A stretch of 64,000 nt of DNA, taken from assembly GCF_049554935.1 (NCBI RefSeq), contig NZ_CP186926.1, forward strand, positions 928,001 to 992,000, read 5' to 3'. Under the pieces are notes generated by a model. That model saw only the letters and a program-made list of their open reading frames with translations, did not search any database and had not been told where the DNA came from. Source of the stretch: Methanocaldococcus indicus (GTDB lineage Archaea > AGJL01 > Methanococci > Methanococcales > Methanocaldococcaceae). Position numbers and translations under genes: made by a program. Below, piece after piece: positions 50,125 through 50,424 of the stretch (the stretch's first letter is position 1; every line of letters begins with the position of its first letter).

Positions 50125-50228
50125 GAAAAAAACGTGAGAGGGTCCCCATAGTTGGGGTTCCCCTCTCACAGCGCAACGTTGTTAGGGACTCAGGATACCC
50201 CAAAGATGGTTAGCGTTGCGCCCACCCC
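50125..50228 (-). ncRNA. putative structured RNA: 5' stem-loop domain + SECIS-like hairpin + U-tract
   Basis: GC-rich island. Stems GCGCAACG/CGUUGCGC and UUGGGG/CCCUAA. SECIS GUGAGAGGG-GAA-CCCCAACUAUGGGG-A-CCCUCUCAC at 50169-50134. U7 at 50132-50126. Upstream CGCAAAAT-TTTTATATT BRE/TATA at ~50268-50252. Confidence 0.75.
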
Positions 50229-50424
50229 AATTCACTATAAATTATAACAACAATATAAAAATTTTGCGATTTTAATTTACTAATTTAGATATAAAAATTA
50301 AAGTTAATTTTAAATATAATAAAACTAATTTTAATATTGATTATTAAATAATGATAATAAATTATAAATATTAGTTATTACATGATATTATTTACAACTT
50401 GAATTGTATTACTACGGTGATAAT

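Follow-up and report, generated by a model that had tools for sequence, protein, structure and literature searches.

A minus-strand locus of about 100 nt in a 64,000-nt stretch of the Methanocaldococcus indicus genome (contig NZ_CP186926.1, positions 928,001 to 992,000; hereafter the window) probably encodes a trans-acting selenocysteine insertion sequence (SECIS) RNA that reaches two targets through a base-pairing tether. The targets are the mRNAs of hdrA (heterodisulfide reductase subunit A) and fwuB (formylmethanofuran dehydrogenase subunit B), both of them essential methanogenesis mRNAs, and our confidence is higher for fwuB, which has no alternative signal, than for hdrA. The 3′ half of the RNA is a canonical methanogen-type SECIS hairpin and the 5′ half consists of two adjacent antisense modules, each complementary to the coding sequence (CDS) directly 3′ of the selenocysteine (Sec) UGA of one mRNA: module A to hdrA +9 to +43 and module B to fwuB +29 to +45, with target positions numbered so that the U of the Sec UGA is 0. 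The tether would give the RNA its specificity for these two UGAs and, since neither mRNA has an intact SECIS next to its gene, the RNA would supply the recoding signal. It would be transcribed from its own promoter, form the duplexes in vivo and direct Sec insertion through the tethered hairpin. We computed or compared the anatomy of the locus, its complementarity to and covariation with the targets, its orthology with the SECIS elements of fwuB 3′ untranslated regions (3′UTRs), and the lack of cis SECIS elements. The features of the locus, in window coordinates, are as follows.

50230–50126, minus: small-RNA locus of about 100 nt, with a TATA box upstream and U7 at its end
50252–50268, minus: putative promoter, a B recognition element (BRE)-like CGCAAAA followed by a TATA-like TTTTTATATT at 50261–50252
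50222–50230, minus: 5′ segment of module A (UUGGGGUGG), complement of hdrA mRNA CCACCCCAA at about +35 to +43
50197–50220, minus: main segment of module A, 24 nt, with 23 Watson–Crick pairs and one G–U to hdrA mRNA +9 to +32
50186–50202, minus: module B, 17 nt, with 16 Watson–Crick pairs to fwuB mRNA +29 to +45
50171–50185, minus: linker, whose CGUUGCGC (50178–50171) is predicted to pair with 50221–50214 in the free RNA
50133–50170, minus: SECIS hairpin, GUGAGAGGG-GAA-CCCC..GGGG-A-CCCUCUCAC
50126–50132, minus: U7 tract, a likely archaeal terminator as read from the sequence

Antisense modules and SECIS hairpin

The main segment of module A is complementary to hdrA at C1:96148–96125 (contig C1 of the window's genome, G000), and its target holds the hdrA codons AAG AUG GUU AGC just 3′ of the Sec UGA; module B is complementary to fwuB at C1:1019181–1019165. 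The initial annotation had noticed that an unpaired strand of the RNA is complementary to a start-codon-like sequence. That strand does have a real target, as it lies inside the 24-nt duplex with these hdrA codons. Across the 1.43-Mb genome, RNA nt 1–62 have multi-word complements (≥12 nt) at hdrA (12 overlapping words) and fwuB (5) only, with eight isolated single 12-mers elsewhere. At 80 °C the predicted binding energies are −26.6 kcal/mol for hdrA (shuffled targets, −3.1 ± 1.4) and −16.6 kcal/mol for fwuB (shuffled targets, −3.8 ± 1.5), and the SECIS hairpin remains folded in both predicted complexes. The two modules have a GGGG in common, so a single RNA molecule would probably not pair with both mRNAs at once. 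With antiparallel pairing the 3′ end of each module is nearest the UGA, so that the SECIS would emerge at the UGA-proximal end of the duplex, on the side where mRNA enters a ribosome whose A site holds the UGA. Cofolding also shows extra pairings between fwuB and the 5′ end of the RNA, which we regard as incidental.

By every structural criterion tested the hairpin is an archaeal SECIS, and it would insert Sec as such. Above a 10-bp basal helix come the internal loop, GAA (50160–50158) opposite A (50143), then an upper helix of CCCC(A)/(U)GGGG and finally a loop of 4–6 nt; the G–C clamps on both sides of the internal loop, the basal helix of about 9–10 bp and the short apical loop of methanogen-type SECIS elements are all present. 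These are also the features, with a GAA/A kink-turn-like loop, of 3′UTR SECIS elements such as that of fruA (window 15919–15954). The core, GGGGAACCC..GGGACCC, is identical to the fruA SECIS core, as the initial annotation had stated: the window holds two copies (this element and the fruA 3′ SECIS, 15926–15947) and 100 shuffles held none. A covariance model built from 29 SECIS hairpins scores the element at 32.6 bits (E = 1.9e-5), rank 4 of 5 genome matches. Among 15 orthologous elements the GAA/A loop, whose conservation had been proposed as a check, is invariant (15/15), and seven helix pairs have changed on both sides. Both As of the SECIS GAA are essential, according to the available text of PMC11881835. 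In contrast to other 3′UTR SECIS elements, this one lies off the mRNAs that it would serve, as a separate unit with antisense modules ahead of it; the cis location in the untranslated region of the served mRNA is seen in 11 relatives and is lost here. As the hairpin is structurally a SECIS outside the defining cis location, we read the whole RNA as a stand-alone, dual-guide, tethered SECIS.

In the free RNA an 8-bp GC stem (50221–50214 with 50178–50171) encloses the strand CUAACCAUCU (50213–50204) and a weak inner hairpin. This linker stem partly masks module A and is predicted to persist at 80 °C, and to be displaced once the RNA is paired with hdrA mRNA. The predicted fold has a free energy of −44.2 kcal/mol (z = −2.96; equalled by 1 of 200 shuffles), and GC content is 0.42–0.49 at the element as against 0.09–0.27 in its flanks. 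The promoter, GC stem, unpaired strand, hairpin and U7 tract described previously were thus recovered as sequence, and the fold was reproduced. The inner 6-bp stem with a UGA in its loop fared differently: folding at 37 °C predicts it, but none of its pairs covaries, and the segment is better read as module B facing fwuB. At the 5′ end, the TATA-like box stands about 23 nt ahead of the first hdrA-complementary base, close to a GGGG (50228–50225). The distance from box to GGGG is 20–25 nt in 15/15 element-bearing genomes, copies that follow fwuB included, and a U-rich tract lies 3′ of the hairpin in 15/15 elements. An AT-rich motif of the type TTAATTA-N-TTTATTTGAATT follows the terminator in most copies (window about 50100–50125; 30 nt past the U-tract in loci L002–L013) and seems to have moved together with the element.

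No known RNA family accounts for the locus. An Rfam scan of the whole window gave no match at the gathering threshold, and a local scan by E-value gave noise only (ARRPOF at 14.1 bits with a threshold of 127.2, HgcG at 9.5 with 77); overlap with the Hgc RNAs catalogued in AT-rich hyperthermophiles was judged through Rfam alone. The family match that the initial annotation had named as grounds for rejection was therefore not found. An H/ACA or C/D small RNA (sRNA) was ruled out, since the stem is not followed by an ACA box and Rfam gives no match. An NrpR operator, which has the motif GGAA-N6-TTCC, was ruled out as well, since the motif is absent.

Orthologs, separation from fwuB and candidate client genes

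We searched 41 genomes by BLAST with a 121-nt query: G000 and 40 relatives, of the same genus (g1) or of a second family (f2) among others. Matches were found in 15 of the 16 other g1 genomes and in none of the 23 f2 genomes. Most g1 genomes with a match have a second one, to query positions 10–43; in G000 this lies at C1:96113–96147 and is antisense to hdrA just 3′ of its in-frame TGA (context ..DDCAL-U-ILAPKMVSVANHPNV). The full element was recovered in 14/16 g1 relatives. Searches of the other two, G004 and G007, each with 86% completeness, did not find it: the former yielded the hdrA site alone and the latter a site with two mismatches. In G009 the element begins 52 nt past the stop of the TGA-split fwuB, and it lies 52–70 nt 3′ of fwuB in ten genomes (G001, G006, G008, G009, G010, G011, G012, G014, G015 and G016); in G005 a repeat has been inserted and the two are about 210 nt apart. 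The f2 fwuB 3′UTRs have module B and the SECIS without module A. By sequence comparison the element is thus the ortholog of its relatives' fwuB 3′UTR SECIS, and the description 'orphan' given to it earlier does not hold.

Four genomes have the element detached from fwuB: by 40 kb in G000, 448 kb in G002 and 3.8 kb in G013, and on another contig in G003. These form one clade with 100/99 support in a tree of FwuB and HdrA from 30 genomes. In all four, fwuB and hdrA are single-copy and the cis signals of both are absent. The G000 element is also 882 kb from hdrA. A metagenome scan for further detached copies returned nine stretches, six of them fwuB-adjacent and three chance matches, and no new detached copy. 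The inserted repeat of G005 (L014, upstream of the element) is of a G+C-rich GGGGAGTTTCCGTTCCCCCC type also found near SECIS regions in the hdrA spacers of G033 (L048) and G036 (L046); it may be a small mobile element.

In G000, fwuB is intact, with an in-frame TGA at C1:1019210, its stop at 1018265 and a TIGR03129 match at 631 bits, and it is the sole FwdB homolog found in the genome. Its 3′ flank consists of about 60 AT-rich nt before the next gene, and this same junction without the element is seen in two independent assemblies, G000 and G003. Between the single-copy hdrA and vhuD lies a spacer of about 100 nt. The canonical hdrA SECIS, GCACCAYCC-GAA-GGC..GCC-A-GGRUGGUGC, has its core in 8/15 g1 and 18/21 f2 genomes; the core is absent from G000, G002, G003, G013, G004, G014 and G010, and from G025, G029 and G030. 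In the G000 spacer the GAA/A core is lost and the sole content is a short hairpin between AGAUGAG and CUGAUGA. In most genomes the cis hdrA SECIS is enclosed by a box C/D- or K-turn-like clamp of these two motifs (AGAUGAG ... CUGAUGA; G000:C1 about 94670–94705, minus), with the same position in L030, L040, L043, L039 and L041. Genomes that have lost the GAA/A core still keep the clamp around a short hairpin, so it may serve a separate function, such as L7Ae binding.

Strict and relaxed regular-expression scans of G000 agree on six SECIS elements, those of vhuU, vhuD, a HesB-like gene, fruA and selD and the present one, and a covariance-model scan (29 diverse SECIS hairpins) recovered five of the same six, missing vhuU. 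None of these genome-wide scans found another SECIS near fwuB or hdrA. The genome also has two SECIS-like repeats. One, AGATTG-GAA-ATG..CGT-A-TGGTCT, is a false SECIS-like match with a conserved flank, present at window 31190–31221 (minus) and at about 17 other G000 sites; the second, TTATATATGA-GAA-GGT.CGTTAAT.GTT-A-TTATGTCTAA, is at window 7713–7749 (minus) and at least five other G000 sites, one of them on contig C2.

The history that we infer begins with an ancestor of the order that had cis tether and SECIS modules on both fwuB and hdrA. In the g1 ancestor, an addition of about 50 nt after the fwuB stop, ahead of module B, would have brought in module A and a TATA-like box; the cis hdrA SECIS would then have decayed in at least three g1 lineages, and the whole RNA unit would have left fwuB in one clade, where it is now free-standing.

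The adjoining fwuB in 11 relatives, and the gene order around the element, which differs in each of the four detached-element genomes, would also suit a decaying, non-functional relic of the fwuB 3′UTR left by rearrangement. We disfavour this reading and hold it to be very improbable: the tethers and hairpin are intact, the TATA box is at the right distance in all four genomes, module B has followed changes in the fwuB CDS after detachment (G000 as against G003, G013 and G002; below), and the fwuB junction without the element recurs in the two independent assemblies. The initial annotation had raised a recently deleted selenoprotein gene as a way to overturn its proposal. A selenoprotein gene, fwuB, does adjoin the element in relatives, but it has not been deleted here, and since G000 fwuB is intact, Sec-encoding and without a SECIS, 40 kb away, the element is not a relic.

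The gene downstream on the same strand is the P-II gene glnK (PF00543), and the U7 tract ends 33 nt before the start of its longest open reading frame (ORF; 50093) and 51 nt before the likelier start (50075). A riboswitch-like cis leader or attenuator of glnK would fit this strand and spacing. It is nevertheless the most remote of the readings considered, as the adjacency occurs in G000 alone, fwuB lies upstream in 11 genomes and there is no Rfam riboswitch match. Because the neighbours in G003, G013 and G002 are unrelated to glnK and differ, the adjacency is particular to G000, and the link to glnK suggested initially appears incidental. Upstream of the element, two ORFs have no Pfam match: 50404–50613 (plus; 69 aa, divergent) and 50629–51216 (minus; 195 aa, hydrophobic and membrane-like).

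Covariation, cis tethers and rival explanations

The modules covary with their targets. For module B and fwuB (core +29 to +44, 29 genomes), 440/464 cells are standard pairs and five columns have changed on both sides (25 cells), whereas six slid registers pair in 145–211 of 464 cells; the count omits G029 and G030, which have no anchor motif. For module A and hdrA (+9 to +32, 14 genomes), 326/336 cells are paired, compared with 111–145 in slid registers, and complementary runs of 22–24 nt are found in 14/14 genomes. Two-sided columns in the main segment are +14 and +29 (G013), +25 (G010, with Ser-to-Asn in HdrA) and +32 (G000 and G003), and a fifth compensatory column lies in the 5′ segment of G013, where RNA UGGGUGG faces hdrA CCACCCA.

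Module B appears from these alignments to have tracked fwuB CDS changes after RNA and gene separated in the detached clade. The co-changed pairs are CCUGAGUCC with GGACUCAGG (G000), CCUGAAUCCUG with CAGGAUUCAGG (G003), CCUACGUCCU with AGGACGUAGG (G013) and CCUACAUCU with AGAUGUAGG (G002). Thus fwuB GUA has become UCA in G000 and G003, matched by UAC to UGA in the RNA, and the GAC/GAU difference between the fwuB genes of G000 and G003 is mirrored by GUCC/AUCC in the RNA, with G013 and G002 differing likewise.

The same layout recurs in cis. In f2, the order of fwuB 3′UTRs is stop, tether (GGGUAUCCUACAUCCUGC type), 15–30 nt, SECIS, and perfect complements of 12–26 nt starting at +26 to +31 were found in 10 of the 17 genomes examined, with shorter ones in most others. 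The hdrA 3′UTRs have perfect 12–28-nt complements to their own CDS, starting at +28 to +53 and placed just 5′ of the cis SECIS, in 17/36 genomes of two families (7/15 g1 and 10/21 f2; loci L030–L064, e.g. L033, L034 and L049). Outside the window, selD (G000:C1:1205241–1206260) has a perfect 15-nt complement of its own CDS (+13) right after the stop, about 65 nt before its SECIS, which suggests that tethering is general for long UGA–SECIS distances. Modules A and B both present the mark of a tether, a complement beside the hairpin to CDS shortly 3′ of a Sec UGA, and do so in trans; module A matches the cis tethers of hdrA, fwuB and selD in its position relative to the UGA and its orientation relative to the SECIS.

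Published precedent comes from fdhA1. According to the available text of PMC11881835, its 5′UTR SECIS has complementary flanks of 7 and 10 nt, pairing of which would bring the hairpin to a point 43 nt 3′ of the UGA, and complements are longer in thermophiles. The element resembles that case in joining a distant SECIS to a CDS complement tens of nucleotides 3′ of a UGA. There the arrangement is in cis, serves one gene and has its 7- and 10-nt flanks on both sides of the hairpin (PMC11881835, same text), whereas here tethers of 17 and 24 + 9 nt, all of them 5′ of the hairpin, are directed at two mRNAs and come from a locus separate from either gene. In a limited literature search, fdhA1 was the sole published case of the tethered layout found, and no description of the hdrA case was found; the text of PMC11881835 available to us has no mention of hdrA and seven of fwuB, which concern an AAA/A loop variant and plasmid names and not complementarity.

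An alternative is that the RNA serves fwuB only, with module A an hdrA antisense regulator or a leftover, and that HdrA obtains Sec through the vhuD SECIS on a shared transcript. An intact vhuD SECIS lies 1949 nt 3′ of the hdrA UGA, and a shared hdrA–vhuD SECIS has been proposed for Lokiarchaeota, where, as far as the available text of PMC4989117 describes it, one SECIS on a polycistronic mRNA would serve the UGAs of several genes including hdrA. That proposal shares with ours one SECIS for more than one gene; there it acts in cis and no tether is described in that text (PMC4989117). Module A moreover coexists with a cis hdrA SECIS core in 8/15 genomes of the genus, and G025, G029 and G030, one lineage outside the genus with an AT-rich hdrA–vhuD spacer and no SECIS core, gave no trans tether by BLAST, only weak AT-rich matches. 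Against service to fwuB alone, module A is kept in 14/14 genomes with its five compensatory columns, it shares the geometry of the cis tethers, and the cis hdrA SECIS core has been lost in at least three lineages of the sole genus that has module A. We judge it unlikely, though it deserves to be taken seriously.

A second alternative has the RNA inserting no Sec at all, acting instead as a base-pairing antisense regulator that represses or stabilises the hdrA and fwuB mRNAs, or as a selenium-dependent sponge of the SECIS-binding factor. Duplexes that begin 7–27 nt past the UGA might make ribosomes stall or attract double-strand RNases, and the abundance of a reporter mRNA was about three-fold lower when it had complementary flanks (PMC11881835, in the text available). 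On this reading, the transcript of the sole fwuB gene would have an in-frame UGA yet carry no SECIS at all, and the invariant GAA/A loop and compensatory helix changes are typical of working SECIS elements; we hold regulation or sponging to be quite improbable. For the sponge, an idea of the initial annotation, we found nothing in its favour, whereas its suggestion of a SECIS supplied in trans is backed by the comparative evidence, with the targets now specified as fwuB and hdrA.

Several points weigh against the dual-guide, trans-acting SECIS that we prefer. The RNA's own promoter, ends and strand are deduced from sequence. The covariation counts are of cells and not of events, among genomes that are kin, and given shared ancestry the independent events come, by our estimate, to about 3 (module A) and about 6–8 (module B); gene conversion between the two DNA copies could in principle mimic covariation. 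Third-codon positions in the hdrA target are not clearly more conserved (6/12 variable, 57/78 outside). As hdrA and vhuD probably share one transcript, which carries the intact vhuD SECIS, hdrA may not need the RNA, and the coexistence of module A with cis cores and the lineage of G025, G029 and G030 point the same way. In the reporter system, complementary flanks brought no significant change in activity, and an effect of only about two-fold once normalised to mRNA (PMC11881835, available text), so the tether may matter little in cis. Finally, our limited literature search found no organism in which a natural SECIS is shown to act in trans.

Relation to known systems and implications

Bacterial SECIS elements are bound by SelB and lie inside the CDS directly 3′ of the UGA, according to the text of PMC2933860 that was available. 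Like these, the paired hairpin would come to lie directly downstream of the UGA, close to where mRNA enters the decoding ribosome; unlike them, it is another hairpin type and would reach this position via RNA–RNA pairing and not through membership of the CDS. Base-pairing proximity would replace contiguity, as it reportedly does in the engineered E. coli constructs of Su, Li and Gladyshev (NAR 2005), in which a 3′UTR SECIS is said to have been brought near the UGA by mRNA pairing, artificially and in cis. Trans-encoded sRNAs, 3′UTR-derived sRNAs and box C/D guide RNAs are likewise modular, joining an antisense guide to a functional module. The element resembles 3′UTR-derived sRNAs in lying, in 11 relatives, in a 3′UTR with its own TATA-like box, and differs from sRNAs and guide RNAs in that it would deliver a translational recoding signal and not regulation, cleavage or modification.

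How a SECIS communicates with the ribosome at distances of up to 1.4 kb upstream, and through which SECIS-binding factor, is presented as an open question in archaea in the available text of PMC2933860 and PMC11881835. On balance we favour, somewhat less firmly than the two-target RNA itself, the view that distant Sec recoding in archaea works by RNA–RNA tethering of the SECIS near the UGA, and that this locus is the first natural trans-acting recoding RNA, with two guides. Under such a rule the tether carries the specificity, so a SECIS can be encoded as a free-standing guide–SECIS RNA gene. Proximity through RNA pairing would offer a concrete mechanism, and would explain how fwuB and hdrA are translated in genomes where neither has a SECIS. 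SECIS elements are defined as cis-acting, and a separated SECIS with covarying tethers would be a natural experiment for trans action. If this is true, selenoprotein genes need no SECIS of their own and genome scans that demand one in cis miss such genes; re-targeting of the guides would also suggest a route to programmable Sec insertion in archaeal expression hosts.

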